Source: Escherichia phage vB_EcoM_G2494
DNA: 64,000 nt
Sequence record: MK327935.1
Direction: 5' to 3' (one strand)
The number at the start of each line of letters is the position of its first letter. The first letter of the stretch is position 1. Below are positions 29,306 through 49,388 of this stretch, piece after piece. The position numbers and the translations under genes are program-made. The notes under the pieces are model-generated. The model searched no databases. It saw only the letters and a list, made by a program, of their open reading frames with translations, and had not been told where the DNA came from.

Positions 29306-29306
29306 G

Positions 29307-33621: not shown

Positions 33622-34233
33622 TTATTTATATTTCGCGACCTTTGGATTTCGCCGCAGACCGGAATGTATTTGCGCTATACAACAATAAGAAACATTAAAC
33701 ATATCAGCTATAATTTGCTTCTTAACTTTTCCTTTAAGCCGCATTATTTCTTCGACTTGCGCATTTGTCAGTTTTGCCCGTGAGTGGTTTTCACCGACAT
33801 TGTTATTGAGTCCAGTTCTAAATGAATGTCTCATATTTTCTAGTAAGGTTACTATTTCTAGATTCCACACATAATTGCAGGTTTTTACACCATTGATGTG
33901 ATTAACCTCAAGTCCGGTAACGTCTCCTAGAAATGCATTTGCTACAAGTCGATGTATCTTTTCGGCTTTAACTGAGATTTTACCATTGTCGTTTTGTTTT
34001 GACAATGTTGAATAATAATATCCATATCGGTCTAAAATTGGTTTTATTATTTTACCAGCACGTTTTTGCTTTACGAGCTTAATATTACCGGGAGAAACTT
34101 CTCTATAAAATTCGATACTTCGGTCAATAGATCTCAATCTACCATAATTAGAGATTTCATACCACGGATAACCTACAGCTTGTCTCCATTCTTCCGGCGC
34201 TGGTAATATGATATTATCATCTTTTGTTTCCAT
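33622..34233 (-). CDS. HNH homing endonuclease with NUMOD4-like N-terminal motif
   Basis: EWRQAVGYPWYEISNYGRLRS and HRLVANAF ... VNHINGV ... NLE; ATG at 34233 (track start TTG). Confidence 0.7.
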   Translation of the reverse strand: METKDDNIILPAPEEWRQAVGYPWYEISNYGRLRSIDRSIEFYREVSPGNIKLVKQKRAGKIIKPILDRYGYYYSTLSKQNDNGKISVKAEKIHRLVANAFLGDVTGLEVNHINGVKTCNYVWNLEIVTLLENMRHSFRTGLNNNVGENHSRAKLTNAQVEEIMRLKGKVKKQIIADMFNVSYCCIAQIHSGLRRNPKVAKYK

Positions 34234-34235
34234 TG

Positions 34236-34556
34236 TCAACTGCCACCATGAATTTCGACGATCTGCGCTGGTGTTAAACCGTCTACATTAATCAGACTAT
34301 CAAGCCCAAAACTACAGAAACCTTCAACTGCAATTTCATATACTGGCAAAGATGTTTCTGATTCTTTACGCGGTTTTTCAACATTAGGAACTAACCACTT
34401 TTCGTATGTTTCGAAAGGCATCAGTGCCGGATCTCGCGTGGCGATCATCTCACGGACAGTACCATCTTTCTTAGTAAACTGCAAAGAGTGAGTACCGACC
34501 GAAAACATTTTCTTTAGTGCTTCACGAAGTGCGATATTATCAACTTGTTCAGTCAT
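34236..34556 (-). CDS. hypothetical protein (106 aa)
   Basis: ATG at 34556 (track start TTG). Confidence 0.5.
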   Translation of the reverse strand: MTEQVDNIALREALKKMFSVGTHSLQFTKKDGTVREMIATRDPALMPFETYEKWLVPNVEKPRKESETSLPVYEIAVEGFCSFGLDSLINVDGLTPAQIVEIHGGS

Positions 34557-35055
34557 TATCAATACCCTTCAAATCAGTCAATAATGCTTTTGGAATACGC
34601 GTGATCGTAATATCTGCATTATTCAGAATATCAGCCCAATCACGCCCACCATTTCGATCATATGTGTCGCAATAGTATAAATGTTTAATTCCACTGTTTG
34701 CAATTGCTTTAGCGCAATCTGGACACGGTGAAGCAGTACACCACATACTAGCGCCTTCAATCGATACACCGCTACGGGCAGCAAACAAAATAGCATTTAA
34801 TTCAGCGTGGATCTCGTTTTTCTGTGACCATGCACTATGCTCTGGTCGTTTTTCTGGGATCATTTTTCCTTCATCATCCAGCCAACCGCTTTTATGTGCA
34901 TGACAGCTACAGTTTTCTTGTCCTGCTGGAGTGCCGTTAAATCCAGTAGAAATGATTCGCCCGTCTTTTTCGATCAGTGCGCCTACCTTCCACGAAACGC
35001 ATTTAGAGTTCTTTGCGATTAGATAGGCGATCTGCATGTAAGTTTGTGACAACAT
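34549..35055 (-). CDS. cd: dCMP deaminase
   Basis: HAELNAI and PCPDCAKAI zinc-binding motifs. Confidence 0.88.
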   Translation of the reverse strand: MLSQTYMQIAYLIAKNSKCVSWKVGALIEKDGRIISTGFNGTPAGQENCSCHAHKSGWLDDEGKMIPEKRPEHSAWSQKNEIHAELNAILFAARSGVSIEGASMWCTASPCPDCAKAIANSGIKHLYYCDTYDRNGGRDWADILNNADITITRIPKALLTDLKGIDND

Positions 35056-35076
35056 AATATAATCCTCACATATTAA

Positions 35077-35280
35077 TTAACCGTATACGCGAAAGTATTC
35101 TACTGATCCGTCGCTATACTGTTTTACATTGAATGTATTCACACCATGATCATTGCTCATAATGACATACACACTGCGACGCTCATCACTAAACGGGTTA
35201 ACTGGTGCGGGTTCAATTTCAACATTAAAACCACGTTTAGCAAGTGCTTCGCCTAATTGCTTGAGTTTATCGGTAAACAT
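35077..35280 (-). CDS. hypothetical protein (67 aa)
   Basis: ATG start, ORF between cd and pseT. Confidence 0.5.
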   Translation of the reverse strand: MFTDKLKQLGEALAKRGFNVEIEPAPVNPFSDERRSVYVIMSNDHGVNTFNVKQYSDGSVEYFRVYG

Positions 35281-36158
35281 TAAAAGTCTCCGTAGTTAAC
35301 CTGAAAACATTCTACACCAATTGAGCGGTACATGTCAACCACTTGATCACGGTCATCTACTGCCAACACAACATGATAACGCGGTGCAATTTCAGAGAAG
35401 AAAATCTCTTTCTTCACTTCATGATCAGGACGACGATCATTAGTTTCACGTTGAAAGTGATCGCTAGGTTCAATACCCTGTTCACGCAACCATTGCAGAG
35501 TATCTTCTTCGCAAACATCCTCACGCCCTGAGCATGTAATGATACGATAACCATTATCACGATACAGTTTAAGCATTTCGATCACTTGCGGACGCGGTTT
35601 ATCTTCTTTGACCTTTGTCCAGTCAAACGGATGACGACCGCCCTTATCCGCTAATGTTCCATCAATATCAAAGATCACTGCCTTCGGCAGCATGGTATTC
35701 GGTTTGTATACTTCTTGACCCATATATTCCTGCATCAGATAAAATTGGTTACGCAAATGAGAAAGTGGAATTGCTTTCTCGCCTCGATAGAAATTACGTT
35801 TCTTTAGTGTCTCAAATGATTCATTGAACACTTGTTCAGTATACACCGCGTTAAATTCTTTTGCAAGTTCTTTGTAGAATACACGATGTTTTTCTTTCAG
35901 GTTAGTATCAGAGATAATGATACTTAATCCGCGTGATAGAGTCTCACGAGCAATCATTCTCTGAATAGACTCTACCAGCTTTTCTTTTTCCTTAGTATAC
36001 TTGTATTTCAAATGTGAGTCAACACCAAACAACATAAGACGAAGATCATCACGATTCACATTACGATAATTACTAAACCGGTTACATGTTTCCATAGCCC
36101 ATGTAGTTTTACCAGACCTAGAACAACCAACGGTTAAAATCACTTCACATTTCGGCAT
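35280..36158 (-). CDS. pseT: polynucleotide 5'-kinase / 3'-phosphatase
   Basis: GCSRSGKTT P-loop, DIDGTL HAD motif, C-terminal similarity to T4 Pnk; ATG at 36158 with GGAG SD. Confidence 0.9.
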   Translation of the reverse strand: MPKCEVILTVGCSRSGKTTWAMETCNRFSNYRNVNRDDLRLMLFGVDSHLKYKYTKEKEKLVESIQRMIARETLSRGLSIIISDTNLKEKHRVFYKELAKEFNAVYTEQVFNESFETLKKRNFYRGEKAIPLSHLRNQFYLMQEYMGQEVYKPNTMLPKAVIFDIDGTLADKGGRHPFDWTKVKEDKPRPQVIEMLKLYRDNGYRIITCSGREDVCEEDTLQWLREQGIEPSDHFQRETNDRRPDHEVKKEIFFSEIAPRYHVVLAVDDRDQVVDMYRSIGVECFQVNYGDF

Positions 36159-36613
36159 TATTTCTCCTTCGGTTTGCACCGTTCCTCATTAAGTTCTTTT
36201 CGATAATAACACATGATCAACTTACTTTCAAGTGTATATCTCTTAATATCCGCAAGCCAGACTCTGAATTTTTGGGAGTCCTCCCACGACATAGAAACTC
36301 TAGGTTTACCGTCTATTGTATCCACTTTCAGGTCAATGTCAACTTTTTCTATTGGTGCTGGTAGTTGAGGATGTAATTTCGGTTCCTGTGAATACTGGTC
36401 CATTGTACACGAAGAAAGAGCAAATACAATAGGCACAGCGAAGACATGGATTATGGCGGTCTGAAAATTCTTATGTGCTTTCTTAAACATCCGGTGTATC
36501 ACGAAAATTGAAAACACCATCAGGATAATAATAATGCTTGCCCCTATCCCCAGATAATCAACCAGATTAAAATTGCTTATCTGCTCTTGCGTAGGCAATA
36601 TTTCTATGCTCAT
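36158..36613 (-). CDS. membrane/lipoprotein-like protein, putative o-spanin (start ambiguous)
   Basis: Strong AAAGGAGG SD at 36613; internal signal-peptide-like segment with lipobox LSSC after Met42; downstream of i-spanin. Confidence 0.4.
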   Translation of the reverse strand: MSIEILPTQEQISNFNLVDYLGIGASIIIILMVFSIFVIHRMFKKAHKNFQTAIIHVFAVPIVFALSSCTMDQYSQEPKLHPQLPAPIEKVDIDLKVDTIDGKPRVSMSWEDSQKFRVWLADIKRYTLESKLIMCYYRKELNEERCKPKEK

Positions 36614-36933
36614 TTAGTAGCCTCCTTTAATTCTTCGGTAAACTCCTTAAATGAATCATTAAGCTGTTTCTCTACCAACTTGGGTTTTTGTGCTACTACA
36701 TAGCCTCGTGTAGCGTCTTTCATTGCTTTGTTTTGTTCTTCTGCAAACTTAGTTCTTATTCCGTACATCTCCTTTTGTAGTGAGTCTACGACCTTCATCT
36801 TTTCATCGGTCTTTTTCTTATACTCTGTAAATTCCCGATTCAGTCGATCTACCTCCTTTTTATTTTCCCACCACATATTGCCACCTACCCCTAGCAACAC
36901 AGAGATGATAACAATGTATATCAGCTTTGACAT
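36610..36933 (-). CDS. i-spanin (N-terminal TM, periplasmic coiled-coil)
   Basis: MSKLIYIVIISVLLGVGG TM then charged coiled-coil; position as T4 pseT.3. Confidence 0.6.
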   Translation of the reverse strand: MSKLIYIVIISVLLGVGGNMWWENKKEVDRLNREFTEYKKKTDEKMKVVDSLQKEMYGIRTKFAEEQNKAMKDATRGYVVAQKPKLVEKQLNDSFKEFTEELKEATK

Positions 36934-36977
36934 ATTACCCCCAACGACAAAAGGCGGGGAACTAGCCCCGCTTATTA

Positions 36978-38147
36978 TTACCAATCAATCTTATCAGCCG
37001 GAATCAGTTTCTTATAATTCCGTAGATAGTAAGTTTTCATTGAATCCAGAATACGGTCATAATCAAGACCATCAAATGCAATCATCAGACACATGAAAAT
37101 ATATGCTTGTGCATCACCATGTTTACGTGATTCGATAGTCGCATTTGATGCATATGTCTTTCTGTCTTCTCCCGCGTGTGCGTTATAAAATTCTGTTGCT
37201 GTAGTGAAGGCATTGCGAAGAATAGACCTGAATGCTTCCTCGAATAACTCGATTCGTTCCAGTGCTTCCGGTTCGCCTTCATATGCAGCACGCAAATCAT
37301 CGGTTTCGCTTTCTACGACATAGTAGATCAGGTTATTAGGAAACATCGATGTGTTTTTAATGTTATGCACACCAATATACCATTCACTCTTCACTTTGAA
37401 CATTTGACCGTCTTTAGTGCGTGCAACAATTCCTTCGATACCTTCTGCGGTCCGAACTTCATCAAGAATATTGCTAAAATGCGCTGAATCAACCTGTAAC
37501 GCATTTACCAGATGAGGACGTAGGATTGCGTCAGCAAATAGCATTTGATGCGGTACGTACTCTCCTGTGACGTTATGGCGTACATTCAGAAGTGTTAGCG
37601 ACGGTTCAGAATATTCTACAACAATTCGGTTGCTGGGTGCTGTATATTCAAAGTTGAAAGTATAATCAGACCCAATATCAGCAATCTTAGCGCGTAGATC
37701 CGCATACTTCTCTGAATACAGAAGACCGTTTGCTCTCTCTGCCTGGCTTGAGTACAAGGCCGCTTTAGACTTCAACTGAACATAGCCGTTATCAATGTAG
37801 GTGCTTACTAGACTACCGTCCATTTTGTCCATGACCATTTCCACATCTTCCGGCTTAAAGCGAGCGCGATCATTCTCACCCAAATTAAAAAACTTCTCCA
37901 TAGGACGAGATGCGATGCGGACCGGACGACCTTTATCGTCAATTTCAAACATGATCCCGCGACACTCTAACGCATCTGGTTTATTCCACATTTCCGGTTT
38001 GCTCAAGTACAGATAGCTAAAAATGCGCATACGGGTTTGCATCGCCGTAATTTCATCTTTGTAATAGAACGTATCAGATCCGTCACACAGTGCCATCAGA
38101 TTTTTGAACAATGCTAAAACTTTTTTGTTGTTTTCTTTTGTTGACAT
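36978..38147 (-). CDS. rnlA: RNA ligase 1
   Basis: DKMDGSLV KxDG motif, IFSYLY, ALECRGIMFE match T4 Rnl1. Confidence 0.9.
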   Translation of the reverse strand: MSTKENNKKVLALFKNLMALCDGSDTFYYKDEITAMQTRMRIFSYLYLSKPEMWNKPDALECRGIMFEIDDKGRPVRIASRPMEKFFNLGENDRARFKPEDVEMVMDKMDGSLVSTYIDNGYVQLKSKAALYSSQAERANGLLYSEKYADLRAKIADIGSDYTFNFEYTAPSNRIVVEYSEPSLTLLNVRHNVTGEYVPHQMLFADAILRPHLVNALQVDSAHFSNILDEVRTAEGIEGIVARTKDGQMFKVKSEWYIGVHNIKNTSMFPNNLIYYVVESETDDLRAAYEGEPEALERIELFEEAFRSILRNAFTTATEFYNAHAGEDRKTYASNATIESRKHGDAQAYIFMCLMIAFDGLDYDRILDSMKTYYLRNYKKLIPADKIDW

Positions 38148-38544
38148 AATTTGTGTTCCATTCTGGTTTAAATTTGGTGATCAAAACAGGTTCTTCGATA
38201 TCGGCAGTGCTTATAATATCCTTACCCGTTGGATTCTCGATGTACAACTCAAAACACTGGCGGTAATAGAATGTTACTGTCTTACCTTCCTCTAGCGCCT
38301 TATGAATATTCTTACTCTTGCGAGTATCCGCTGTTGGTGTTTGTCTGTTAATGCTGGTCCGGTAATAATTGATCCGCTTTCTGAGATTGACAGTCTGACC
38401 AATGTATACCAGTTCATCATCAACCACAATAGCATAAAGAACATTTAAACGGTTCTTCTGAGGAGGTAGAATCACATCACCATCTTTACACTCTAAACAT
38501 GAATATTTAACGAATCCATAGTTTTCTATTAGCTCATTAATCAT
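38083..38544 (-). CDS. denA: endonuclease II (GIY-YIG family)
   Basis: VLYAIVVDDELVYIGQTVNLRKRINYYRTSINR closely matches T4 DenA. Confidence 0.88.
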   Translation of the reverse strand: MINELIENYGFVKYSCLECKDGDVILPPQKNRLNVLYAIVVDDELVYIGQTVNLRKRINYYRTSINRQTPTADTRKSKNIHKALEEGKTVTFYYRQCFELYIENPTGKDIISTADIEEPVLITKFKPEWNTNYVNKRKQQKSFSIVQKSDGTV

Positions 38545-38561
38545 TATCCTTTCCTCACGTC

Positions 38562-38587
38562 ACAACAAAGGCGGGATTTCTCCCGCC
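38562..38587 (-). terminator. hairpin terminator-like element (minus strand)
   Basis: ggcgggatttctcccgcc hairpin with T-rich tail on minus strand. Confidence 0.45.
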
Positions 38588-38594
38588 CACCTTA

Positions 38595-38993
38595 TTAACT
38601 TTCCAGAATATCGCGAGCTTCGTTACGCTCCTTGATGATTTTCAGGACAAATTCCAGTTTTTCTTTGTTTAGTGTTCCGTTTTCCATTGCTTCTTTGACG
38701 GTAAACACTCCGCCACCTTGCCCGTATACAGTGACAGTGATTTCACCTAACATCGTGGTATGAAAACCTCCAATTTTCGGTGATTCGAAAGAAACAATTA
38801 CCTCGCGGACAGTATTACCGTCGTTGATTTCTGAGAGGGTAATGTCGTTTTTGTAGGCGGTTGCTTTAACCATACGGATCAGCATAGTCTGATCTGGGGA
38901 GATGGTCATTTTGTCCATTGCATGTTGCAATGCAGCGTAACCGAAAACTTTAACGAAGTCCAGAACATCTTTGCGAGTTTGAAATTTAATCAT
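38595..38993 (-). CDS. hypothetical protein (132 aa)
   Basis: ATG with AAGGAG SD behind promoter 39035-39063. Confidence 0.55.
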   Translation of the reverse strand: MIKFQTRKDVLDFVKVFGYAALQHAMDKMTISPDQTMLIRMVKATAYKNDITLSEINDGNTVREVIVSFESPKIGGFHTTMLGEITVTVYGQGGGVFTVKEAMENGTLNKEKLEFVLKIIKERNEARDILES

Positions 38994-39034
38994 CTTGATA
39001 CTCCTTAGTAAGTTAGTTTCGTTTCGATGGGGGT

Positions 39035-39063
39035 ATATTACTACCCCCGTTTCATGCTGTCAA
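39035..39063 (-). promoter_or_regulatory. early promoter TTGACA-17-TAATAT with stem-loop GGGGGTAGTAATATACCCCC over the -10
   Basis: Read on minus strand. Confidence 0.55.
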
Positions 39064-39282
39064 CTACTTTTTAATGACAAGTTCGAATTTTGCTACCTTG
39101 CGTCCTCGTTTATTGAAAGCAACCCACGGACGGTTTTCAATGTAGAACAATTCTTCGCCAATAATGAATACTGGCTGATTGTAAAGGCGACCCATCAGGT
39201 CACGCTGGCGAATGGTAGTAGATTCGTATACTTCGCCTACTACAAAGTGCTTGCTGATAGAGTCGGTGCAAGTAAATTTCAT
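39064..39282 (-). CDS. hypothetical protein (72 aa)
   Basis: ATG start behind promoter 39316-39344. Confidence 0.5.
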   Translation of the reverse strand: MKFTCTDSISKHFVVGEVYESTTIRQRDLMGRLYNQPVFIIGEELFYIENRPWVAFNKRGRKVAKFELVIKK

Positions 39283-39315
39283 TTTGATTCTCCTTTGTTT
39301 CGTTTCGATGGGGGT

Positions 39316-39344
39316 ATATTACTACCCCCGTTATTCAGTGTCAA
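39316..39344 (-). promoter_or_regulatory. early promoter TTGACA-17-TAATAT with stem-loop
   Basis: Near-duplicate of 39035-39063. Confidence 0.55.
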
Positions 39345-39351
39345 CTACTTT

Positions 39352-39570
39352 TTACTTGTTGTATTCATTCCACCATTGGGTTAGCTTATCAATTATTTTT
39401 GTGTTTCTATCCAACTTCTCCCACCGTTTTCTAGGGTTTATCAACCGGAATAGGTAAGGTGTACTTGTTAAGTGGACTCGGTCAATGCAGTGATTGATGT
39501 ACTGCTTTTCAATTCTAAGTTTCATCTTTTTACGATGAAAATATGCAATGACTTGTTCTTCTGTTTCCAT
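39352..39570 (-). CDS. hypothetical protein (72 aa)
   Basis: ATG with GGAGGAACAT SD. Confidence 0.5.
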   Translation of the reverse strand: METEEQVIAYFHRKKMKLRIEKQYINHCIDRVHLTSTPYLFRLINPRKRWEKLDRNTKIIDKLTQWWNEYNK

Positions 39571-39594
39571 ATGTTCCTCCGTTTAGATGTGCGT

Positions 39595-39623
39595 ATTATG
39601 CTATGGCAAGATCAGATTGTCAA
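39595..39623 (-). promoter_or_regulatory. early promoter TTGACA-17-CATAAT
   Basis: Read on minus strand. Confidence 0.55.
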
Positions 39624-39634
39624 CACCCAATAAC

Positions 39635-39659
39635 AAAAAAGTCGCCACTATGGGCGACT
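39635..39659 (-). terminator. rho-independent terminator (minus strand)
   Basis: gtcgcc-actatg-ggcgac hairpin followed by T-run on minus strand. Confidence 0.6.
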
Positions 39660-39670
39660 TTGAACAAACA

Positions 39671-40147
39671 TTAATCATGACCGTGATTTGCAATATCCGC
39701 TCGCGTCTTATCTTTGTGATTTCCTACGTCAAAGACACGATAACCATTTTCACGCAAAACTTTAATCACTTCTGGGTTATCCTCAAAGACTCCGACAACT
39801 TCATCCTTATCAAAGGATTTAATTACCTCTAATTTGATGTGATAGTCTTTACGGGAATCGGTACGGCCTCTCATAAAGATTTTATCAAAACACACCCCGT
39901 TAGAAATTAACCAATCAATTGTTTCCATGTAAGCATGTGAACTTCGTCCGGTGAGGATGTAAATCAAATGCCCGTTGTCGGAAAGAGCATTAATAACACG
40001 AATTACATCGTAAATGGGGGAATCTCCCCCACATGCCTTGTTATATTCGATCCATGACTCGACTTTATCAAGATTTTCGGTTGGCATCTTTGCTAGTCGA
40101 TGTGTTGGATCTGTAATCGTAAAATCTAAATCGACAAAATATATCAT
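39671..40147 (-). CDS. HAD-superfamily phosphatase-like protein (resembles Pnk phosphatase domain)
   Basis: VDLDFT (DxDxT), ILTGRS, FEDNPEVIKVLRENGYRVFDVG parallel the Pnk C-terminal domain motifs. Confidence 0.5.
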   Translation of the reverse strand: MIYFVDLDFTITDPTHRLAKMPTENLDKVESWIEYNKACGGDSPIYDVIRVINALSDNGHLIYILTGRSSHAYMETIDWLISNGVCFDKIFMRGRTDSRKDYHIKLEVIKSFDKDEVVGVFEDNPEVIKVLRENGYRVFDVGNHKDKTRADIANHGHD

Positions 40148-41331
40148 AGATATTTCCCGAATCGGTTGTAGTCATCGTCTGTTAAATCGGTATTAACCTG
40201 AGATACCAGATACATGATCTCTACTTCTTGCGCCGCGTTTTGAACTTCGTCAGAGTTTAACCACTTACGCATCCACGGTAAAGGATGACGACGAACACTA
40301 AACGGGCTTTTCAGTCCGGCAGCACGCATACGGGAATCTGCCAGGTATTCTACATAGGTTTTCAGAATTTCCGGTGACAGGTTAGGAATTGCCCCCATTG
40401 CGAATAGGTGGTCTACCCATTCTTTTTCTTGCTCGACAACATCCAGAAAGATTTTCGTTGCTTCGCCTTCAAGTTCTTCCGCAATCTGTTTCCACTCATC
40501 ACCATCAACCCCAGTTTGCCATTGACGAATAATGTATTGTGTGCCTTTTAAGTGAAGTTGTTCATCACGCGCAATAAATTTCATGATCTTCGCGTTACCT
40601 TCCAGTAAACCACGTTCGGCAAAGCTGAAAGTACATGCAAAGGACACATAAAAACGGATTGCTTCCAGTGCATTTACGCAGTGTGCACACAGATAAATCG
40701 AAGCCATCAGATCTCGTTTTGTGTCTTCAAAAAATCTTCTTGCATCATCTAATTCTGTCTGATCGTCTCGTTCTTCCCAATAGTGGTGGAGAACTTCTTC
40801 TTCCCAATAGCGGAGATCTTCTTTTGCATTCTCATACTTACGAATCCAATAGAGAACATCATCATAATATTTCCCGATAGATTCCGCTCGCTTCATGATA
40901 GAAGGGTTATCGATGATCTGGTCGAACTCACTAGCAGGATCAATAAAACAGTTACGCATAATGTGTGTATAGCTTCTGCTATGAATCGTTTCGCTGAATG
41001 TCCATGTTTGCAACCATGTATCGAGAGTTGGATCAGATACAATTGGACCAAATACACGGGCTGGCGCTCTGCCTTGAATCGAATCTAGCAAAGTTTGATA
41101 ACGTAAGTTCTCGGTGAAGAAACGCTTTTCAACATCGCTCATATTCAGATATTGAATGCGGTCAGTTGCAAGTGAAATCTCTTCTGGACGCCAGAAAAAT
41201 GACAACTGCTTCTCGATCAACTCTTCAAATACTTGATGACGCTGAATATCATAACGGGCAATCCCTAAATCACTACCAAAAAACATCGGTTCGGTCATAA
41301 TATCAACATGTTCACGATTAAATACGCTCAT
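40144..41331 (-). CDS. nrdB: ribonucleotide reductase small subunit NrdB
   Basis: RNR beta diiron motifs; ATG at 41331 (track start GTG). Confidence 0.92.
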   Translation of the reverse strand: MSVFNREHVDIMTEPMFFGSDLGIARYDIQRHQVFEELIEKQLSFFWRPEEISLATDRIQYLNMSDVEKRFFTENLRYQTLLDSIQGRAPARVFGPIVSDPTLDTWLQTWTFSETIHSRSYTHIMRNCFIDPASEFDQIIDNPSIMKRAESIGKYYDDVLYWIRKYENAKEDLRYWEEEVLHHYWEERDDQTELDDARRFFEDTKRDLMASIYLCAHCVNALEAIRFYVSFACTFSFAERGLLEGNAKIMKFIARDEQLHLKGTQYIIRQWQTGVDGDEWKQIAEELEGEATKIFLDVVEQEKEWVDHLFAMGAIPNLSPEILKTYVEYLADSRMRAAGLKSPFSVRRHPLPWMRKWLNSDEVQNAAQEVEIMYLVSQVNTDLTDDDYNRFGKYL

Positions 41332-41333
41332 CA

Positions 41334-41873: not shown

Positions 41874-41883
41874 AATATTTTAC

Positions 41884-42051
41884 TCACTTTTTAACACAAA
41901 ATAACTTAGTATTTCTGTTTACTTCGCTATCCCGCTGCAATTCCTGCACAGCTTCAAAACAATTTTGATATGATGAAAACTCTACGCTGGTAACAGTTCC
42001 TTTATTATATACGCCTACGCTAACGGAAAGCAATAACCATAATGTAGCCAT
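41884..42051 (-). CDS. small hydrophobic-N-terminus protein (55 aa), tandem paralog 1
   Basis: Hand-translated MATLWLLLSVSV ...; paralog of 42051-42224. Confidence 0.4.
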   Translation of the reverse strand: MATLWLLLSVSVGVYNKGTVTSVEFSSYQNCFEAVQELQRDSEVNRNTKLFCVKK

Positions 42052-42224
42052 TAGTTCACCTTTTGTTTTTCAACGCAATATAGATTCATAAAGCGTTTAT
42101 TGTCTTCGCTGATAATCTCGCGAGCTTTAACGCAATCCTGCTTTGTTGCAAACTCAATGCTTGACATATTTCCGTAATTATACATTGAATTGCTTATTGC
42201 AATCAATAACCATACAGTAGCCAT
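42051..42224 (-). CDS. small hydrophobic-N-terminus protein (57 aa), tandem paralog 2
   Basis: Hand-translated MATVWLLIAISN ... Confidence 0.4.
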   Translation of the reverse strand: MATVWLLIAISNSMYNYGNMSSIEFATKQDCVKAREIISEDNKRFMNLYCVEKQKVN

Positions 42225-42391
42225 TATCCGACAACCTCAAAACATTTATCATCAGGAAGAATCGCCCATTCTACACCGTATTCATCCTCGACGTAGTAGC
42301 AAGTCCCATCATGTCGAGCATCATATTCATCACCAACAACAAAGCTATCAGCTAGTTCAAAATCTACAGCAACACATTTTAATTTGGTCAT
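42224..42391 (-). CDS. hypothetical protein (55 aa from ATG at 42391)
   Basis: GTGAGGA SD; ORF-track N-terminal extension covers the promoter. Confidence 0.45.
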   Translation of the reverse strand: MTKLKCVAVDFELADSFVVGDEYDARHDGTCYYVEDEYGVEWAILPDDKCFEVVG

Positions 42392-42422
42392 AATAAAATC
42401 CTCACTTGTTTTTGATGGTTGT

Positions 42423-42451
42423 ATTATAGCGGGGATTTCTCCCCGCGTCAA
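42423..42451 (-). promoter_or_regulatory. early promoter TTGACG-17-TATAAT with palindromic spacer GCGGGGAGAAATCCCCGC
   Basis: Read on minus strand. Confidence 0.55.
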
Positions 42452-42459
42452 CACTTATT

Positions 42460-44703
42460 TTACAGCTTGCAAGATGAGCACTCGCTAGCGTCTTCCGTAC
42501 CATCTGCACCGTCGCGAACGTTCGCATAATACAGGGTTTTCAGACCGTAATATTGAGCAAACAACATATCATCTAATACATCAGCAATATCGACTTTACC
42601 AGTCTTATAAGTGCTTGGATCGTAGGATGTGTTGGAACTAATCGCCTGATCTACAAACTTCTGCATGATCGCTGCCAGTGTCAGATAAGGCTTGTTACCT
42701 TTCTTGATCAGTGTCCAAAGCAGGTCAATAACATCAGCATTATTCTCTACGTTCGGAATAACCTGATTAAATTGCCCTTCTTTCGATCCTTTAACCGATA
42801 CAATACCGCGAGGCGGTTCAATACCGTTTGTGCTGTTAGATACCTGAGAAGACGACTCACAAGGCATCAGAGCCGAAAGCGTACTGTTACGAATGCCATA
42901 TTTTTTCAGGTCTTCGCGCAGTTCTTCCCAATCCATCTCATATACCGGATCAACCAGTTCATCTACTGTCTTTTTGTACCAGTCGATAGGCAGTTCACCG
43001 CGTCCATAACGTGTTTCGTGCATCAGTTCGCAAGCACCCTTCTCTTTAGCCAGTTGCACACTAGCCTTAATCAGAGCATATTGCAAGCGTTCAAACGTTT
43101 TATGCGTAAACTCGTTAGCGTCTTCATATGTGAAGAAATTATCCGCGAGATACGATGCAAAGTTAGTCACCCCAACACCCAGAGAGCGACGTTTTTTGGC
43201 TGTCAGAGCTTGCTCTACAGGATAATCCTGGTAATCTAACAGGTTGTCAAGTGCACGCACCATAACCATAGCAATGCGTTCTACTTCTTCCATATTTTCG
43301 ATATCAAAGTTTCCTAAAACATATGCTGCCAAAGTACATAGGCTGATCTCTGAATCATCACGACCCATCGGTTTTGTAGGCAGAGCAATTTCACAACACA
43401 GGTTGGATTGTTTAATCGGTGCTACATTACGAATAAACGCCCCGTGATTGTTCATGTTGTCTGTGAACGTTGGGTAGATTCGACCAGTGTTAAAACGTTC
43501 AATTGCCACCGCTAAAAACAGGTCTTCGGCTTTAACACGAGTTTTACGAACACTCGGATCTTTTTCCAGTTTTTCGTAAAGCTGGCGGAAACCTTCCTCA
43601 TCTCGGAAGTATAGATCCCACAACAAGCCACCTGCAACATCTGGACTAAACAGAGTAATGTAATCCCGTTTAAGGAATCGCTCTACCATCAGGTTATTAA
43701 TCTGTACGCCGTAATCAAGATGACGAATGCGGTTATCTTCCACCCCCTTATTGTTCTTTAACACAATCAGACTTTCAAACTCTAAATGCCACATTGGGTA
43801 ATAGAGAGTCGCCGCCCCGCCACGAATACCGCCTTGTGAGCATGACTTAACGGCAGTCTGAAAATGTTTCCAGAATGGGATAACGCCAGTATGACGAACT
43901 TCACCATGCCCGATCTTAGATCCTTCCGCGCGAATCATGCCAGCGTTGATACCGATACCAGCACGCTTGCTAATATACTTGATGATTGCATTTGCTGTTT
44001 CGTTGATGCCCTGCAATGAGTCATCACTTTCAATCACCACACACGAACTAAATTGGCGTGTTGGGGTACGCACACCTGCCATAATCGGAGTAGGCAGAGA
44101 GATTTGCTTATTCGCAACAGCATTATAAAAATCAATCACATGTTCAAGTCGATTTTCGGTCTCTTCTTGATGCAAGCACATACCGATCAGCATATACGCA
44201 AATTGCGGTGTTTCGATGATTTTCTTAGTGCTGCGATCCTGAACAAGATATTTCTCTTTTAACTGCATCGCACCAGCATAGGTCATTTTAAAATCAAGTT
44301 TATGGTCGATGAATTTCTCCAGATATTCCACTTCTTCACGGGAATACTTTTGCAGAATTTCGCGATCATATTTTCCGATTGCAATATTACGCTCAATATG
44401 GCTATAAAAATCAATAGGTTGGAATTGACCGTATACTGATTTACGAAGCGCGAACATTGCAAGGTTACTTGCTACATATTGATAATCGGGTGTTTCTACC
44501 GTGATGTTATCTGCGGCGACCTTAATCAATACTTTCTGGATATCATTGGTAGACATACCTTCTGTCAGAAGTGGTTCAACCATATCAAACAATTCATATG
44601 GATCAACGTTATGACCTTCGGCTGCCGCTTCCAGAATTTTCATTACTTTTTCTTTTTCAAACGGAACAGTCAGACCGGAAGACTTAACAACATTTTTAAT
44701 CAT
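42460..44703 (-). CDS. nrdA: ribonucleotide reductase large subunit NrdA
   Basis: 747 aa; ATP-cone N-terminus, catalytic NLCCE / LCTL and C-terminal CSSC motifs. Confidence 0.93.
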   Translation of the reverse strand: MIKNVVKSSGLTVPFEKEKVMKILEAAAEGHNVDPYELFDMVEPLLTEGMSTNDIQKVLIKVAADNITVETPDYQYVASNLAMFALRKSVYGQFQPIDFYSHIERNIAIGKYDREILQKYSREEVEYLEKFIDHKLDFKMTYAGAMQLKEKYLVQDRSTKKIIETPQFAYMLIGMCLHQEETENRLEHVIDFYNAVANKQISLPTPIMAGVRTPTRQFSSCVVIESDDSLQGINETANAIIKYISKRAGIGINAGMIRAEGSKIGHGEVRHTGVIPFWKHFQTAVKSCSQGGIRGGAATLYYPMWHLEFESLIVLKNNKGVEDNRIRHLDYGVQINNLMVERFLKRDYITLFSPDVAGGLLWDLYFRDEEGFRQLYEKLEKDPSVRKTRVKAEDLFLAVAIERFNTGRIYPTFTDNMNNHGAFIRNVAPIKQSNLCCEIALPTKPMGRDDSEISLCTLAAYVLGNFDIENMEEVERIAMVMVRALDNLLDYQDYPVEQALTAKKRRSLGVGVTNFASYLADNFFTYEDANEFTHKTFERLQYALIKASVQLAKEKGACELMHETRYGRGELPIDWYKKTVDELVDPVYEMDWEELREDLKKYGIRNSTLSALMPCESSSQVSNSTNGIEPPRGIVSVKGSKEGQFNQVIPNVENNADVIDLLWTLIKKGNKPYLTLAAIMQKFVDQAISSNTSYDPSTYKTGKVDIADVLDDMLFAQYYGLKTLYYANVRDGADGTEDASECSSCKL

Positions 44704-44771
44704 ATTACCTCACTTCATATTTTAGCAGGAACAAGTTTATCCTCCATATTGGGGGCTTTCGCCCCCTTTGT

Positions 44772-45992
44772 TTATACTGCCATTTGAGCGGTGATCGCTG
44801 GATGGCTTTGATAGTTGTGAATTTTAAAGTCTTTCGGAGTCTTTGTCAATACCTCATCTAAAGATTTAAATTCCGGCAACTCAATTGTTGGTTTATCAAA
44901 CGGAACACGGCTTAACTGTTCCATAACTTGATCAAAGTGGTTTTTGTAAATGTGAGTATCTCCACCAGAGAAAATCAGTTCTCCTACCTCAAGATCACAC
45001 ATTTTCGCTATGATGTGAGTTAACAGCGCATAGCTGGCAACATTAAAGGGCAAGCCCAAAAAGCTGTCTACGCTTCGCTGAAACCACATACAAGACAGTT
45101 TACCTTCATTGACGTAGAATTGCACGAAAGGATGACATACACCTAATACAGCATTATGTGTTCCTTGTACGTTCCATGAGTCAATAATGATCCGGCGATC
45201 CGTTGGATTATTTTTAATTTGTTCAATCACGTTTTGTAACTGGTCTTCCCAAATCTTCGGGCGATAGACATATTCTTCATCGTCTTTAGGGCTTGATGTG
45301 TCTACATCCATACTAACAAAGATCGTGGTATCAGGTGCTAAAATGTCACCGCCCAGATATTCATTATCAAACAGATAACCGAAATAACCATCATCTACCC
45401 ATTCCTGGAATCCCCACAAGCAATATGCATCATTAACAAAATTAGATTGAGTCTTCCAGTGATCTGCTACCAGAATATAATCAAACTCTTCATAACGCAT
45501 ACCACGCCAGATAGCACATAAACGGTCTTCTGTTTCATTGGTTGGCGTAAAGTCTTCTACCCACGGGTGTTTAAATGTATGTGTATATTTGCTCTTAACG
45601 CGCTTAATTTTGATTTCACCGTGTGGATGAATCGGTTTGCGTCGCCATGCCATACCATACATATTGCCGACATTATAACCATTGAATCGCAAAGGATTCT
45701 TTTCTTTCATATCAAGACAGTTGCCGCGCCAAATGTCGAAGGCTTCTTCGTCAAACTTACCGCGTGTAATTTCCTGTAAGCGACGGCGGTCAAGTGATCC
45801 CTCCATAAACCATAGCAATTCACCAATTACAGAGGCTGTAGCCATCTTTTTAGTGGTCAGTAAGGGGAAACCCTTGCTTAAGTCAATTCGCATTTCTGCA
45901 CCGAATTTAGAGAGCGTACCTATCCCCGTTCGGTCTTCACGAGGCCAGCCATTATCAAGAACATCACGCAACAGTTTCAAATATTCTTTCAT
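44772..45992 (-). CDS. td: thymidylate synthase with about 115-residue internal insertion
   Basis: ThyA motifs (DRTGIGT, LGVCHPFVQFY, DRRIIIDSWNV, C-terminal AITAQMAV) but 406 aa versus 264-286 aa typical; insert between WRR and DQLQNVIEQIK. Confidence 0.85.
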   Translation of the reverse strand: MKEYLKLLRDVLDNGWPREDRTGIGTLSKFGAEMRIDLSKGFPLLTTKKMATASVIGELLWFMEGSLDRRRLQEITRGKFDEEAFDIWRGNCLDMKEKNPLRFNGYNVGNMYGMAWRRKPIHPHGEIKIKRVKSKYTHTFKHPWVEDFTPTNETEDRLCAIWRGMRYEEFDYILVADHWKTQSNFVNDAYCLWGFQEWVDDGYFGYLFDNEYLGGDILAPDTTIFVSMDVDTSSPKDDEEYVYRPKIWEDQLQNVIEQIKNNPTDRRIIIDSWNVQGTHNAVLGVCHPFVQFYVNEGKLSCMWFQRSVDSFLGLPFNVASYALLTHIIAKMCDLEVGELIFSGGDTHIYKNHFDQVMEQLSRVPFDKPTIELPEFKSLDEVLTKTPKDFKIHNYQSHPAITAQMAV

Positions 45993-46232
45993 CCCACATC
46001 ACCTTTTTCTTATTGATTGCTTTCTTACGCAGTTTTGCTACTGTCTCGTCAATATCGATAAAGACAACGCCACGGTCGAATACAGTAGCAGGTCTTGAGA
46101 TATCGCTATTTTCTTGCACAGGAAGCCATGATGCGCTCGCTTCATCATAGAGATATTATAAACCGTAATAATCTACGGCTACTGCGTAGTTTTCACTGGT
46201 AGCCGTCCATAATTGAATAATACCGACTTTCA

Positions 46233-46325
46233 TTATTGTTCCCGTCCGCAATGTAAGCACCGACTACCAGCAAACATTAAAGATTCACCACAATGTTTGC
46301 ACTCATAATCTGTCAGAATTTTCAT
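46233..46325 (-). CDS. tiny zinc-ribbon-like ORF (30 aa)
   Basis: CKHCG ... CLHCG; ATG 1 nt after frd stop; hand-called. Confidence 0.3.
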   Translation of the reverse strand: MKILTDYECKHCGESLMFAGSRCLHCGREQ

Positions 46326-46326
46326 G

Positions 46327-46908
46327 TTACGCCTTCTTACGTTCTAAAATTTGTTCGCTGATCAGGTAATTATCAAGGAAGTAATTATGTTCTTCTTTGG
46401 TTACAAAGTCAAAATACAATTCCTGAATCATTTCCTTAGATATACCAACATCATATTCAAATGGATCGTTGATCCCTGAACGTTGAACATACGTTAACAC
46501 AATACGGTCCGCAAAGTCAACTGCTTTTTCAATCAGGGAAGGTCCGCCAATAACGCTTACCAAACCTTGCAATTTCTCTATGACTTCTAATAATTCCTTC
46601 AATCCACCATCATTAGTAATCGCGGTATACACATCTGGTTGGTCGCCGTTTTTTGCTTTCGGTGCTGGCTTACTGGTATCGGTGCTAACAACCACATTCA
46701 CACGGCCTTCCAGTGCTTTAGGTAGACTTTCAAAGGTATTACGTCCCATTACAACCGCCGCAAGATCAACATCTCCCATAGTGCGCATTTTAAAGTTTTC
46801 CATGTCTTTTTTGATTGGACGTCCCCACGGTAAACCGCCTTTAAAACCAAAAGCCCAATTTTCATCTGACATTTTAGTATCACCAATCGCAAATACACAT
46901 TGAATCAT
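46327..46908 (-). CDS. frd: dihydrofolate reductase
   Basis: 193 aa; GLPW, VMGRNTFES DHFR motifs; adjacent to td. Confidence 0.88.
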   Translation of the reverse strand: MIQCVFAIGDTKMSDENWAFGFKGGLPWGRPIKKDMENFKMRTMGDVDLAAVVMGRNTFESLPKALEGRVNVVVSTDTSKPAPKAKNGDQPDVYTAITNDGGLKELLEVIEKLQGLVSVIGGPSLIEKAVDFADRIVLTYVQRSGINDPFEYDVGISKEMIQELYFDFVTKEEHNYFLDNYLISEQILERKKA

Positions 46909-46923
46909 AATATAAATCTCCCA

Positions 46924-47253
46924 TCAAATCAGTTTGAAATAGTTTTCATTTACATTTTCTTCTGTGATTGCTGTCTTAAATTCTTGACCGTTATCCGGTG
47001 TGATGAAATAACGGTCTGAATAATCACGAAAACGTTTTAAGTGAGATACCCCAACATTAACACCATGTTCCCAAAAACGAAAGGTAATCATTTTTGGTTC
47101 ATATCGATAGTCGCTGGTCAACACAGTACCATCACCGCGACGGGCTTCATAAACCGTAATACATTCACGATTGGCGGCTTTTAGGCATTCTTCAATAGTG
47201 CCGCACGAGATAATACTTACTTTTTCATCTACGATTTGTTCTACAGTCCACAT
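46924..47253 (-). CDS. hypothetical protein (109 aa)
   Basis: ATG start behind promoter 47285-47312. Confidence 0.55.
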   Translation of the reverse strand: MWTVEQIVDEKVSIISCGTIEECLKAANRECITVYEARRGDGTVLTSDYRYEPKMITFRFWEHGVNVGVSHLKRFRDYSDRYFITPDNGQEFKTAITEENVNENYFKLI

Positions 47254-47284
47254 AATATAATCCTCTCTTTGTTTCGATGTTTGT

Positions 47285-47312
47285 ATTATACATCATCTGT
47301 GTTCGGCGTCAA
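47285..47312 (-). promoter_or_regulatory. early promoter TTGACG-16-TATAAT
   Basis: Read on minus strand. Confidence 0.5.
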
Positions 47313-47638
47313 CCTTTTTGTTCCATGAAAAGCGGTGCTGTTTCTTCTTTCAGTTTAATAACTAGCGCGGAAACTTCATCAAGAAAATCTTTTTCCATAT
47401 GAGCAAGCATTGATTTAGAATCTTTGATGACTTTCAAAGAATATTCACTTAGATTTCCTTTTCCTAACAATAATGCAGGATACACACTATGTGGGATCTC
47501 GATTTCATGATATTCACTCATAGTATAATATTTGTGAATTTTTAAATCTATATTTCTTCGTTGTACGTCTACATCAGCAATGACATACAGACGTTCGATT
47601 TTATCACTTTTTTGAGAAAGGGTAGCATTCAAAAACAT
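47309..47638 (-). CDS. hypothetical protein (109 aa)
   Basis: ATG start behind promoter 47668-47695. Confidence 0.55.
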   Translation of the reverse strand: MFLNATLSQKSDKIERLYVIADVDVQRRNIDLKIHKYYTMSEYHEIEIPHSVYPALLLGKGNLSEYSLKVIKDSKSMLAHMEKDFLDEVSALVIKLKEETAPLFMEQKG

Positions 47639-47667
47639 TGTTAATCCTCCGTTGTTTCGATGTGTGT

Positions 47668-47695
47668 ATTATACATTACCGCGCCAGCATGTCAA
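47668..47695 (-). promoter_or_regulatory. early promoter TTGACA-16-TATAAT
   Basis: Read on minus strand. Confidence 0.5.
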
Positions 47696-47721
47696 TATAT
47701 TTTTCATAAAAATTTAGGTAA

Positions 47722-47750
47722 TAAAAAAGCCCCCCGAAGGAAGGCTTTAA
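47722..47750 (-). terminator. hairpin terminator-like element after gene 32 (minus strand)
   Basis: A-run plus aagcc ... ggctt hairpin on plus strand. Confidence 0.4.
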
Positions 47751-47756
47751 AATTCA

Positions 47757-48731
47757 TTACATCCCTAACAGAGCGTCAAGATCATCCAGATCAGAAGCGG
47801 AGGAAGTACCGCCACCCAGATCCAGCGATGCCATCAGGTCATCAGCGGAAGAATCTAACGCCGTGCTAGCTGCGTTAATACCAACTACAGTGCTAGCTGC
47901 GTTAATACCAGCATCGAATGCATTCATCTGTGCGTCAAAATCGTCAAGCTGGCTGTTAATCGCTGCCGCAGCACTGAAAGCCACAGCACCAGCTACCATA
48001 GAAACGCCCATAGTTTTCTTAAATTTGGTTTCCAGTTCATCGAACGGTTTAAACTGGCTAGGTGCTACAATCTCACTCAGATCAACCATGTTTTCCATCA
48101 GATATTTCTGATATGCTTCGTCTTCAATTTTCGGAAGCTGTGATTGCTGCATGAAACGAGAATCATCATAGTTCTGGTGTTTATCAACCTTCTTAGCTTT
48201 CAGGAGGAAGTTAGCACCGGAGAACACACAAGTTACATCTACCGGAACTTCGCCCATGTCGGTATTCACGTTCACCATTGCAACGATCTTATCATAAATT
48301 TTCTGACCGAAGCGGAATTTGAATACCTTACCTTCATTTTCTGGTGCTTGAGGATCTTTCAGTACCAGAATATTTGCGTAGTAAGACGCTTTACGCTTAA
48401 TCAGTTGCCATTCGGTTTTATCGGTATTGTACAGGTCTTTTTCGTTAATATATTTGCACACAGGGCAAGAATCAAAATCACCGTGGGTGCTGGAGCAGTT
48501 TTCCCAATACCATTTGCCATTAACTTTGAAGGAATGGTTTACCAGTTTCACAATCGGCAGACCGTCTTCTGTCTTAGGCGGCAGGAAGCGAATCAGGGCT
48601 TCACCGTTACCTGCTGCATCAGTCTTAATCTTCCACTCTTTCGGATCTTCTTTGGAGAAACCGTTGCCACCTTTCAGTGCGGCCAGTTGAGCTTGCAGTT
48701 TGGAGCTATCTTGACGACGAAACATGTTCAT
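47757..48731 (-). CDS. 32: single-stranded DNA-binding protein gp32
   Basis: Collinear identity to T4 gp32 (HGDYDSCPVC zinc site, KDPAAPENEGKVFK); acidic C-terminal tail. Confidence 0.93.
   Translation of the reverse strand: MNMFRRQDSSKLQAQLAALKGGNGFSKEDPKEWKIKTDAAGNGEALIRFLPPKTEDGLPIVKLVNHSFKVNGKWYWENCSSTHGDFDSCPVCKYINEKDLYNTDKTEWQLIKRKASYYANILVLKDPQAPENEGKVFKFRFGQKIYDKIVAMVNVNTDMGEVPVDVTCVFSGANFLLKAKKVDKHQNYDDSRFMQQSQLPKIEDEAYQKYLMENMVDLSEIVAPSQFKPFDELETKFKKTMGVSMVAGAVAFSAAAAINSQLDDFDAQMNAFDAGINAASTVVGINAASTALDSSADDLMASLDLGGGTSSASDLDDLDALLGM
47863..47909. repeat. 27-bp-period in-frame tandem repeat in gp32 acidic tail coding region
   Basis: gtgctagctgcgttaatacc occurs twice 27 bp apart. 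Confidence 0.7.
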
Positions 48732-48791
48732 AATTATACCTCTTTATACATTAACTATTGATTAATTTACGTTTTATACTATATCAGATAC

Positions 48792-49388
48792 TTAATTGCT
48801 TGTCAATACTTTATCAATTATATCTAACAGTTTTGGCTTTCTATTTTCAAATTCTAACATCTCTTCGGGAGAAATGTCAACTACTTCTGTTTTGTTGAAA
48901 AAGTTTGGGTCTATAGCATCAGCAACAAAGTTTCTCGCAAGTGCTGCCGCTTTCTCATGAACATATATTCCCAAATATATCAACTTCTTTCTTTCGACCT
49001 GAATATTGGCAACATATTTACCATCTCGTTTATAAAGACTAACACCGATATATTCAGACGATCGACCTTTCTGTTTACCCATATTTCTTGAGTTTTGTTG
49101 CTCGTTCGCATCTCTCAAGTTTTCAATCCGATTATCTGTTATAATTCGGTTAACATGGTCAACGTATTTTGGCATGTATCCATGATGCATAAAGAAAATT
49201 ATTCTATGCTCTTTATGATGTTTACCATCGATACACACCAATCTGTATCCATGACTAGGATTAACTCCACCCGCTCTAGATCCGACTTTATGCTTTCTGT
49301 TTGTCGATATCTTGCGAATCAGCTTACCGTTATCATATTTAAAGAGTTCATGACAACGAGCATACAATTCAGGATCATATGTTTTCAC
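48792..49388 (-). CDS. HNH-AP2 homing endonuclease (GTG start), between genes 32 and 59
   Basis: VDHVNRIITDNRIENLR HNH motif and AP2-like YIGVSL ... paralog of 41334-41873. Confidence 0.65.
   Translation of the reverse strand: MKTYDPELYARCHELFKYDNGKLIRKISTNRKHKVGSRAGGVNPSHGYRLVCIDGKHHKEHRIIFFMHHGYMPKYVDHVNRIITDNRIENLRDANEQQNSRNMGKQKGRSSEYIGVSLYKRDGKYVANIQVERKKLIYLGIYVHEKAAALARNFVADAIDPNFFNKTEVVDISPEEMLEFENRKPKLLDIIDKVLTSN

Follow-up and report, generated by a model that had tools for sequence, protein, structure and literature searches.

The genome of Escherichia phage vB_EcoM_G2494 (sequence record MK327935.1) contains three open reading frames (ORFs) of the HNH endonuclease family, one next to gene 31, one between nrdA and nrdB and one between genes 32 and 59, which raises the question of whether they are mobile homing endonuclease genes (HEGs) or genes kept at these places for other reasons. 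The window analyzed here is a stretch of 64,000 nucleotides of this genome, and the three ORFs were named HEG1, HEG2 and HEG3 (Table 1). The window belongs to Krischvirus, a group of RB49-like, T4-type coliphages; a megablast search with positions 33000-50000 matched 67 phage records, the closest of which (pEJ01, E26, G37-3, kvi and RB49, all Krischvirus) showed 95-97.5% identity. From the comparisons described below, HEG1-3 are probably free-standing homing endonuclease genes, that is, optional selfish cassettes beside essential genes, and we give this reading a probability of about 0.75.

The three cassettes and the alleles linked to them

Each ORF together with its 1-kb flanks was used as a query, and 59 records were compared for HEG1, 58 for HEG2 and 65 for HEG3, corresponding to approximately 52 sequenced Krischvirus relatives. 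HEG1 was found in 11 records representing 9 distinct phages (E26, PHB13, G37-3, KFS-EC, FL20, pEJ01, ELT4, ECD7 and phiS) with 98-100% amino acid identity; it was frameshifted in G37-3, where it is annotated as two ORFs, and in FL20, where tblastn gave a two-piece match. HEG2 was present in only two records, G5211 and G37-3, both with 100% amino acid identity. HEG3 occurred in 11 records and in two alleles, the first in Skers, MIZ4, MIZ5, ELT4, kvi, Cognac, Makalu_002, FL20 and pEJ01 (9 records, 98.5-99.5% amino acid identity) and the second in E26 and 011D4 (85%). Records without a given cassette had a precise empty site, seen as a two-piece match whose span was shorter by about 615 bp for HEG1, 565 bp for HEG2 and 586 bp for HEG3. 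The cassettes assorted independently: pEJ01 carries HEG1 and HEG3, G5211 carries HEG2 only, and G37-3 carries the frameshifted HEG1 together with HEG2. No deposited genome was found to carry all three. The GC (guanine plus cytosine) contents of HEG1, HEG2 and HEG3 were 0.353, 0.337 and 0.352, respectively, compared to 0.404 for the window. As determined from junction alignments, the flanking genes were intact and the cassettes were inserted between the upstream stop and the downstream start. The presence/absence comparison that had been suggested in the initial annotation, which was made from the letters alone, thus strongly favored mobile free-standing HEGs, the occurrence being sporadic and the empty sites precise among genomes with 95-98% identity.

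When the window and 11 relatives were aligned over 20 kb, HEG1 and HEG2 were each found to be linked to a divergent tract. The HEG1-linked tract includes the 5' two-thirds of gene 31 and contains 37 fixed differences between HEG1-carrying and HEG1-less genomes, with 5 amino acid changes and a divergence of 17.7% between the two groups against a background of 2-3%. In nrdB, 38 fixed differences between HEG2-carrying and HEG2-less genomes were located at nucleotides 38-278 (41054-41294), resulting in 8 amino acid changes and a divergence of 16.3% over the same background. The distal boundary of both tracts was abrupt, and the DNA just past the tracts, or across the cassette, showed no differentiation between the groups beyond the background level. 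Linkage of the tract alleles was also evaluated database-wide, over the whole phage collection (blastn, distant mode). The HEG1-type gene 31 allele was confined to the 11 HEG1-carrying records (11/11) and the HEG2-type nrdB allele to G5211 and G37-3 (2/2 HEG2-carrying genomes). Within the carriers, the diversity of the HEG together with its tract was below that of the flanks of the same genomes. As judged from these alignments, it is well supported that the HEG1 and HEG2 tracts correspond to what intron-less homing with co-conversion and self-immunity would be expected to leave behind. A donor outside Krischvirus was considered for the two tracts and rejected, because the distant-mode search found the HEG-type alleles only in HEG-carrying Krischvirus.

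The differences in nrdB were concentrated distally, with 18 of the 38 falling within 50 nt (nt 228-278; permutation P=0.0006). This cluster spans the codons of NLRYQTLLDSIQGRAP, a region which we take to hold an iron-ligand aspartate, as in class Ia R2 proteins, and the HEG2 target or immunity site is predicted to lie there. The closest non-identical homolog of HEG2 (P0002, 53% identity) is located between gp7 and gp8 on another T4-like contig and was uninformative on the nrdB site.

Partial HEG-linked alleles were detected in three genomes that lack the corresponding cassette. UPWr_E1 and JK32 (L017 and L018, both at 603-926) have no HEG1 and carry HEG1-type single nucleotide polymorphisms at the distal end of the gene 31 tract, and phiS has no HEG3, yet the HEG3-type 5' end of gene 32 is kept (L007, around 18275-18340). 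The mosaic gene 31 alleles could be resistant alleles or simple recombinants. More generally, the partial alleles of all three phages may be the footprint of HEG loss, of partial co-conversion or of a resistant allele.

The junctions of each cassette were found to be fitted to the neighboring genes. At the upstream junction of HEG1, the protein encoded by gene 31.1 ends in ...IVEIHGGS* in the window and in ...IVEIYK* at the empty sites. The ATG of HEG1 lies 2 nt past the TGA stop of the remodelled 31.1, and the C-terminus of HEG1 (...AKYK*) is a diverged copy of the displaced 31.1 end; the alignment places the insertion point inside the final codons of gene 31.1. The HEG2 cassette stands precisely in place of the 15-nt spacer that otherwise separates the stop of the ORF231c homolog from the nrdB ATG (41331), and its last codons, GAT GGA GAA TAG, contain a GGAG Shine-Dalgarno sequence 7 nt upstream of that ATG. 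HEG3 begins with a GTG and shares its first 14 nt with the end of gene 59; both this start and the GAGG Shine-Dalgarno sequence of HEG3 are formed from altered gene 59 codons, gp59 ending in ...EISRLKGENI* in HEG3-carrying genomes versus ...EISQLKxETNS*.

At the other end of HEG3, the -35 hexamer of a sigma-70-type promoter-like site lies within the last HEG3 codons. This site occupies the place of the annotated early gene 32 promoter of RB49 (TTGACA..TATAAT), and in the junction alignment both alleles of HEG3 terminate in the native TTGACAAG, the -35 hexamer of that promoter. It was the only positionally meaningful promoter-like site in the scans of the region. Gene 32 starts with MNMFRR... 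in HEG3-carrying genomes versus MFKR... in the others, and the 59-32 spacer differs by 28% between the two groups. HEG1-3 themselves have no obvious promoter, are co-oriented with their neighbors and abut or overlap the upstream stop codon, a layout which suggests low, coupled expression; no terminator-like sites were detected inside them in the terminator scan. Since HEG2 and HEG3 carry expression signals of the downstream gene, their clean deletion would be disfavored.

The gene order across the region was that of annotated RB49, with every gene on the minus strand: ligase, 30.3, 31, HEG1, 31.1, cd, pseT, rnlA, denA, small ORFs, nrdB, HEG2, three small ORFs, nrdA, td, frd, 32, HEG3, 59, 33 and dsbA. 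By this synteny HEG1 follows 31.1 and precedes 31, HEG2 follows nrdA and the three small ORFs and precedes nrdB, and HEG3 follows 59 and precedes 32, in agreement with the neighborhoods given in the initial annotation; the three ORFs themselves were recovered on the minus strand exactly as first called.

Table 1. Positions of HEG1-3, of the sequences linked to them and of the MobE homologs (window positions unless a relative is named)
Feature	Position	Strand	Basis
HEG1, NUMOD4 + HNH_3, 203 aa, ATG start	33622-34233	-	Pfam, PHROGs
HEG1-linked divergent tract: spacer and gene 31 (co-chaperonin) nt 1-216	33370-33621	-	alignment
Gene 31.1 3' end, remodelled, HEG1 upstream junction	34236-34250	-	alignment with five empty-site genomes
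HEG2, HNH_3 + AP2, 179 aa, ATG start	41334-41873	-	Pfam, PHROGs, family profile, model
HEG2-linked divergent tract in nrdB	41054-41331	-	alignment
HEG3, HNH_3 + AP2, 198 aa, GTG start	48792-49388	-	Pfam, PHROGs, paralogy with HEG2
Gene 59 3' end, remodelled	49375-49399	-	junction alignment; fixed differences at 49387-49399
Sigma-70-type promoter-like site TTGACA-17-TATAGT, TG before second hexamer	48806-48778	-	consensus match only, 11/12
HEG3-linked remodelled spacer and first gene 32 codons	48722-48791	-	alignment
MobE homolog, nrdA-nrdB slot, JSE (L006)	9196-9843
MobE homolog, nrdA-nrdB slot, phiS (L007)	9828-10475

Domains, predicted catalytic residues and fold

HEG1 had been read as NUMOD4 plus HNH and HEG2 and HEG3 as HNH plus AP2, and these calls were upheld by Pfam, PHROGs, a family profile and a structural model of HEG2; the failure of profile searches that had been named in advance as a refutation did not occur. 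Pfam placed NUMOD4 at residues 14-77 of HEG1 (E=2.2e-11, 44.2 bits against a cutoff of 23.4), and HNH_3, with a cutoff of 24.8 bits, was matched by HEG1 (E=8e-9, 35.4 bits), HEG2 (E=1.1e-9, 38.2 bits) and HEG3 (E=2.2e-11, 43.6 bits). In PHROGs, all three matched HNH endonuclease families, with E values of 1.9e-35, 2.9e-48 and 1.5e-50, respectively. HEG2 and HEG3 were found to be paralogs with 41% identity (E=2e-33), as had been proposed. Proteins 99-100% identical to HEG1-3 have been deposited, and several records annotate them as HNH (homing) endonucleases.

A profile of the HEG2/HEG3 family was built from 28 aligned homologs, and the majority of the homologs collected had precomputed matches to AP2 (PF00847) and HNH_3. 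Against solved structures, the profile matched the AP2 domains of WRI1 (2.1e-16) and TEM1 (3.4e-8), those of ERF096 and AtERF1, and also I-HmuI (1U3E, 2.3e-8). Structure modelling covered HEG2 only. The AlphaFold model (predicted local distance difference test score, pLDDT, 90) contains strands at 121-146 followed by a helix at 149-165, and its top Foldseek matches were TEM1, AtERF1 (TM 0.71 on target) and WRI1, while I-HmuI 1U3E was matched over 94 columns with a Foldseek probability of 1.00 and an E value of 1.5e-2. The predicted AP2 domain of HEG2 and HEG3 is secured at the family level by the profile and the modelled fold.

Within the 28 family members, including HEG2 and HEG3, residues D82, H83, N91, N95 and R97 were invariant and N104 and N107 nearly so. 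For HEG1, a phmmer search of the PDB matched I-HmuI 1U3E as the sole solved structure (E=1.3e-3), and the HEG1 motif vnH..N..NL aligned to the catalytic region of I-HmuI. The predicted catalytic residues are His112 in HEG1 (motif EVNH..N..NLE), D82-H83 in HEG2 and D77-H78 in HEG3. By these matches HEG1-3 are assigned to the HNH (beta-beta-alpha-metal) superfamily, HEG1 as an I-HmuI-like protein with NUMOD4 and HEG2 and HEG3 as members of the HNH-AP2 class.

It had also been stated that no GIY-YIG seg gene other than denA was present, and the searches agreed with this. When T4 SegG, I-TevI, MobE and I-TevIII were used as phmmer queries, no ORF of the window was matched; denA was located at 38086-38559. 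A GIY..YIG regular expression run over all ORFs gave no match, and HEG1-3 had no GIY-YIG Pfam match. In a Pfam scan of the 49 non-core ORFs of the window, denA was the single match to GIY-YIG, and three ORFs matched HNH_3 and one PF01844 HNH.

A fourth HNH-family ORF, to which the initial annotation had not referred, was identified at 30597-31070 on the minus strand. It encodes 157 aa with a PF01844 match and zinc-type motifs (CxxC...H...N...CxxC), lies directly upstream of the DNA ligase gene (gene 30) and is a homolog of RB49ORF212c (PMC1524935). It is present in RB49 and in G5211, where it is annotated as a putative HNH endonuclease.

Homing and alternative explanations

If HEG1-3 are homing genes, co-infection with a cassette-less relative would allow the encoded enzyme to nick or cut the allele without the HEG, either within the adjacent conserved gene or close to it (gene 31, nrdB, gene 32 region). 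Recombinational repair from the HEG-carrying genome would then copy the cassette and whatever lies between it and the break, and the HEG-carrying genome would be shielded by its own divergent, mostly synonymous allele. Retention would be aided where HEG2 provides the Shine-Dalgarno sequence of nrdB and HEG3 holds the -35 hexamer of the promoter-like site of gene 32. Nuclease activity, target positions and super-Mendelian inheritance of HEG1-3 are what we infer from the sequence comparisons. The earlier suggestion that each ORF is a candidate for intron-less homing gained comparative evidence from the tracts of HEG1 and HEG2, but in the case of HEG3 only the spacer and the first codons were linked.

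Several observations weigh against homing. The 11-relative alignment showed no divergent tract inside gene 32 linked to HEG3, and a target in gene 32 is therefore not indicated. The differences in the gene 31 tract were not significantly clustered at its distal end (permutation P ~0.2). The individual AP2 matches of HEG2 (E=3.8e-7, 30.8 bits) and HEG3 (E=7.4e-5, 23.4 bits) were under the Pfam gathering score of 33.3 bits, and promoter-site counts in the promoter and terminator scans of the region were not above those of shuffles. For HEG1-3, nothing beyond genome-level listings, and no experimental work, was found in the literature. Finally, the presence/absence pattern and the mosaic tracts could come from ordinary homologous recombination, since the group is highly recombinogenic.

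The last point can be extended to an explanation in which the cassettes are passive mosaic modules, either HEG relics or non-homing HNH genes, spread by ordinary homologous recombination within Krischvirus from a diverged lineage. Mosaicism was also seen at HEG-free places (39.2-39.6 kb, 45.0 kb and 47.2-47.7 kb), two of the HEG1 copies have already acquired a frameshift, HEG2 is rare (2 of about 52 genomes), and the lack of a gene 32 tract beside HEG3 would fit as well. However, the catalytic residues and full-length ORFs were conserved in most carriers, with 98-100% amino acid identity, and the diversity of HEG plus tract was lower than that of the flanks in the same genomes, as expected for recent spread. 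The linkage of allele and cassette was perfect database-wide whereas DNA a few hundred bp away was unlinked, and the tracts were one-sided, extending toward the conserved essential gene as reported for T4 SegF, SegG and MobE (PMC2988022). Passive spread is for these reasons considered unlikely. We regard as less probable again a domesticated function, in which a role beneficial to the phage would be the main one and homing secondary or lost; candidates for such a role are exclusion of competitors by DNA cutting, regulation through DNA binding by AP2 or NUMOD4, and stimulation of recombination or amplification of neighboring genes. The way in which HEG2 and HEG3 are integrated with the expression signals of nrdB and gene 32 would agree with such a role, as would the AP2 domain, a fold with which transcription factors bind DNA. 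In T4, HEGs are the cause of the marker exclusion of T2 (PMC2993671), and SegB has been reported to aid escape from a defence system via amplification of loci (PMC13096335). Most relatives, however, are without each of the genes, so that none is needed for growth; the HNH catalytic residues are kept, contrary to a purely regulatory role; and embedded host signals are also typical of selfish T4 HEGs (PMC2988022).

With free-standing homing genes as the preferred explanation, HEG1-3 are uncharacterized new members of known HEG classes, and the phenomenon is a known one and not a new kind of element. Current understanding is unchanged, because the phenomenon, the enzyme classes and annotations of HEG1-3 already exist. 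The only points that routine annotation would not provide are the target regions predicted in gene 31 and in nrdB and a possible competition with a mobE homolog for one slot (see below). The HEG1- and HEG2-linked tracts give concrete predictions of cut positions. In this genus, which has been used in phage therapy, the set would constitute a textbook-quality natural HEG life cycle, with invasion, linkage to an immune allele, embedded host signals, decay and footprints.

Other features of the window and comparison with known systems

Further polymorphism was observed near the genes described above. The site between the ORF238c homolog and gene 32 (47309-47638, minus strand; 14837-16294 in RB49, L001) is occupied by a 109-aa ORF with no Pfam match in the window, E26, kvi, G5211 and 011D4, and by a 390-485-aa ORF (RB49ORF239c) with CapR-homology, DUF723 and treble-clef zinc-finger matches in RB49, Phi1, G37-3 and phiS; pEJ01 has a different ORF there and JSE and PHB13 have nothing. 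Another cassette, mobile or related to defence, may be located here. Between nrdA and td, 011D4 contains two DNA-methylase ORF fragments and E26 an extra 100-aa ORF. The thymidylate synthase gene (44772-45992, minus strand, 406 aa) gave a Pfam Thymidylat_synt match split in two, which suggests an insertion of about 120 aa compared to ordinary ThyA; its length is kept in the genus (RB49 td, 410 aa). At 39200-39600, among the small ORFs between denA and nrdB, E26 (L003) and 011D4 (L010) were only 58-80% identical to the window in 200-bp bins, with no HEG nearby.

Outside this region, the small-ORF block at 25.8-29.3 kb was only about 90% identical to RB49, and it surrounds a 265-bp segment at 29306-29570; the 88-aa ORF encoded there (29307-29573, minus strand) has no counterpart in RB49 and gave no Pfam match. 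In the small early ORF block, a 184-aa ORF (22259-22810, minus strand) matched the N-terminal domain of the GmrSD restriction endonuclease (PF03235, E=6.5e-20). One ORF of the 49-ORF Pfam scan had a Tad2-like (Thoeris anti-defence 2-like) domain (E=3.4e-6). On the plus strand, similarity to RB49 was weak (patches of 74-79%) or absent in the distal part of tail-fibre gene 37 and the DNA following it (59210-62705). Gp38 adhesin was matched (PF05268, E=1.2e-65), most likely by the ORF at 61899-62696, and RB49 has no annotated gp38 at that place. The distal region of gene 37 looks like a host-range module swap.

According to the initial annotation, the three cassettes lie where T4 carries GIY-YIG seg/mob genes. 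This proved right for the slot between 32 and 59, where T4 has segG, a GIY-YIG gene that targets gene 32 (PMC2988022), but not for the others: all five T4 mob genes are HNH (PMC2988022 Table 1), including mobE, located between nrdA and nrdB with nrdB as its target (PMC2988022), and no T4 HEG stands beside gene 31, the T4 annotation showing none between cd and 31. The layout of HEG1-3, promoter-less and co-oriented with the neighboring genes, is that of many T4 HEGs (PMC2988022); segG has promoters of gene 32 within it, and an overlap with the gene upstream is seen for several T4 HEG ORFs (PMC2988022, PMC2790892). SegG and HEG3 share the slot and the orientation (59, HEG, 32), and like HEG3, segG displaces or contains elements of the gene 32 promoter and is read from upstream transcripts. 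The two differ in that SegG is GIY-YIG and HEG3 is HNH_3 plus AP2, and in that HEG3 has no divergent tract in gene 32. HEG3 was also considered as an ortholog of SegG, and this was rejected as BLASTP showed no similarity.

HEG2 resembles T4 MobE in its location in the nrdA-nrdB interval, its presumed target nrdB, its HNH superfamily membership and the polymorphisms in the 5' part of nrdB (PMC2790892). However, MobE abuts nrdA whereas HEG2 abuts nrdB, and the HEG2-linked differences peak at nrdB nt 228-278 and not at 114-131. HEG2 as a MobE ortholog was rejected (E=2.2, no real alignment), the same-slot protein of JSE serving as positive control. That protein is a true MobE homolog of 215 aa (HNH plus NUMOD3), 49% identical to T4 MobE (E=2e-36), and is encoded directly upstream of nrdB in JSE, AV108, FL15, phiS, PTE-Eco09, SSG23 and SFHK24. 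JSE and phiS, and also PHB13, which is without the MobE homolog, have nrdB polymorphisms of their own at nt ~117-137, just before the FFWRPEE codons. This is the region nicked by T4 MobE (nt 122-126; PMC2790892). In Delraymugoa (L012 3063-3902), Aragogtheria, KMB43 and LF73P4, a C5 cytosine DNA methyltransferase gene was found beside nrdA. With HEG2, the MobE homolog and the methyltransferase, the nrdA-nrdB interval (window 41332-42459) thus has three or more alternative cargos and is an insertion hotspot of the genus.

More tentatively, and with considerable doubt, the distal ends of the tracts may mark cleavage sites, and HEG2 and the unrelated mobE homolog of JSE and phiS may compete for the slot in front of nrdB while cutting different nrdB sites. 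If true, gene 31, which encodes a GroES-like co-chaperonin, would be a homing target not known from T4, and the site of HEG2 would fall within the nrdB codons for the conserved LLDSIQGR iron-ligand region (nt ~228-278). The mosaic alleles of UPWr_E1 and JK32, which have no HEG1, would be 'resistant' ones already in circulation. The group would then be a natural system in which to study how homing endonucleases compete and how immunity to them arises, and would yield the first functional data on the very widespread HNH-AP2 class.

Beyond T4, the HEGs are similar to I-HmuI, the HNH nicking enzyme of the Bacillus phage SPO1, in the N-terminal sheet, the HNH core and the His and Asn residues. I-HmuI is intron-encoded and has a different C-terminal DNA-binding part, whereas HEG1-3 are free-standing and have NUMOD4 or AP2 modules. 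Relatives of HEG2 and HEG3 were detected by tblastn in more than 1,400-1,900 phage records, and no functional study of the HNH-AP2 class was found in the literature. In RB49, ORF040c (AP2 plus HNH) and ORF212c (HNH) were listed as putative mobile elements by Nolan et al. 2006 (PMC1524935, Table 3 and text), and the 'HNH-AP2' column in Table 5 of Petrov et al. 2010 gives 1 for RB49 and 2 for JSE (PMC2993671). HEG2 and HEG3 have the same domain architecture as this HNH-AP2 class (RB49ORF040c, RB43, RB16 and JSE; the AP2-HNH proteins of Magnani et al. 2004), but they are situated at loci other than that of RB49ORF040c and are 39-47% identical to the other Krischvirus paralogs.

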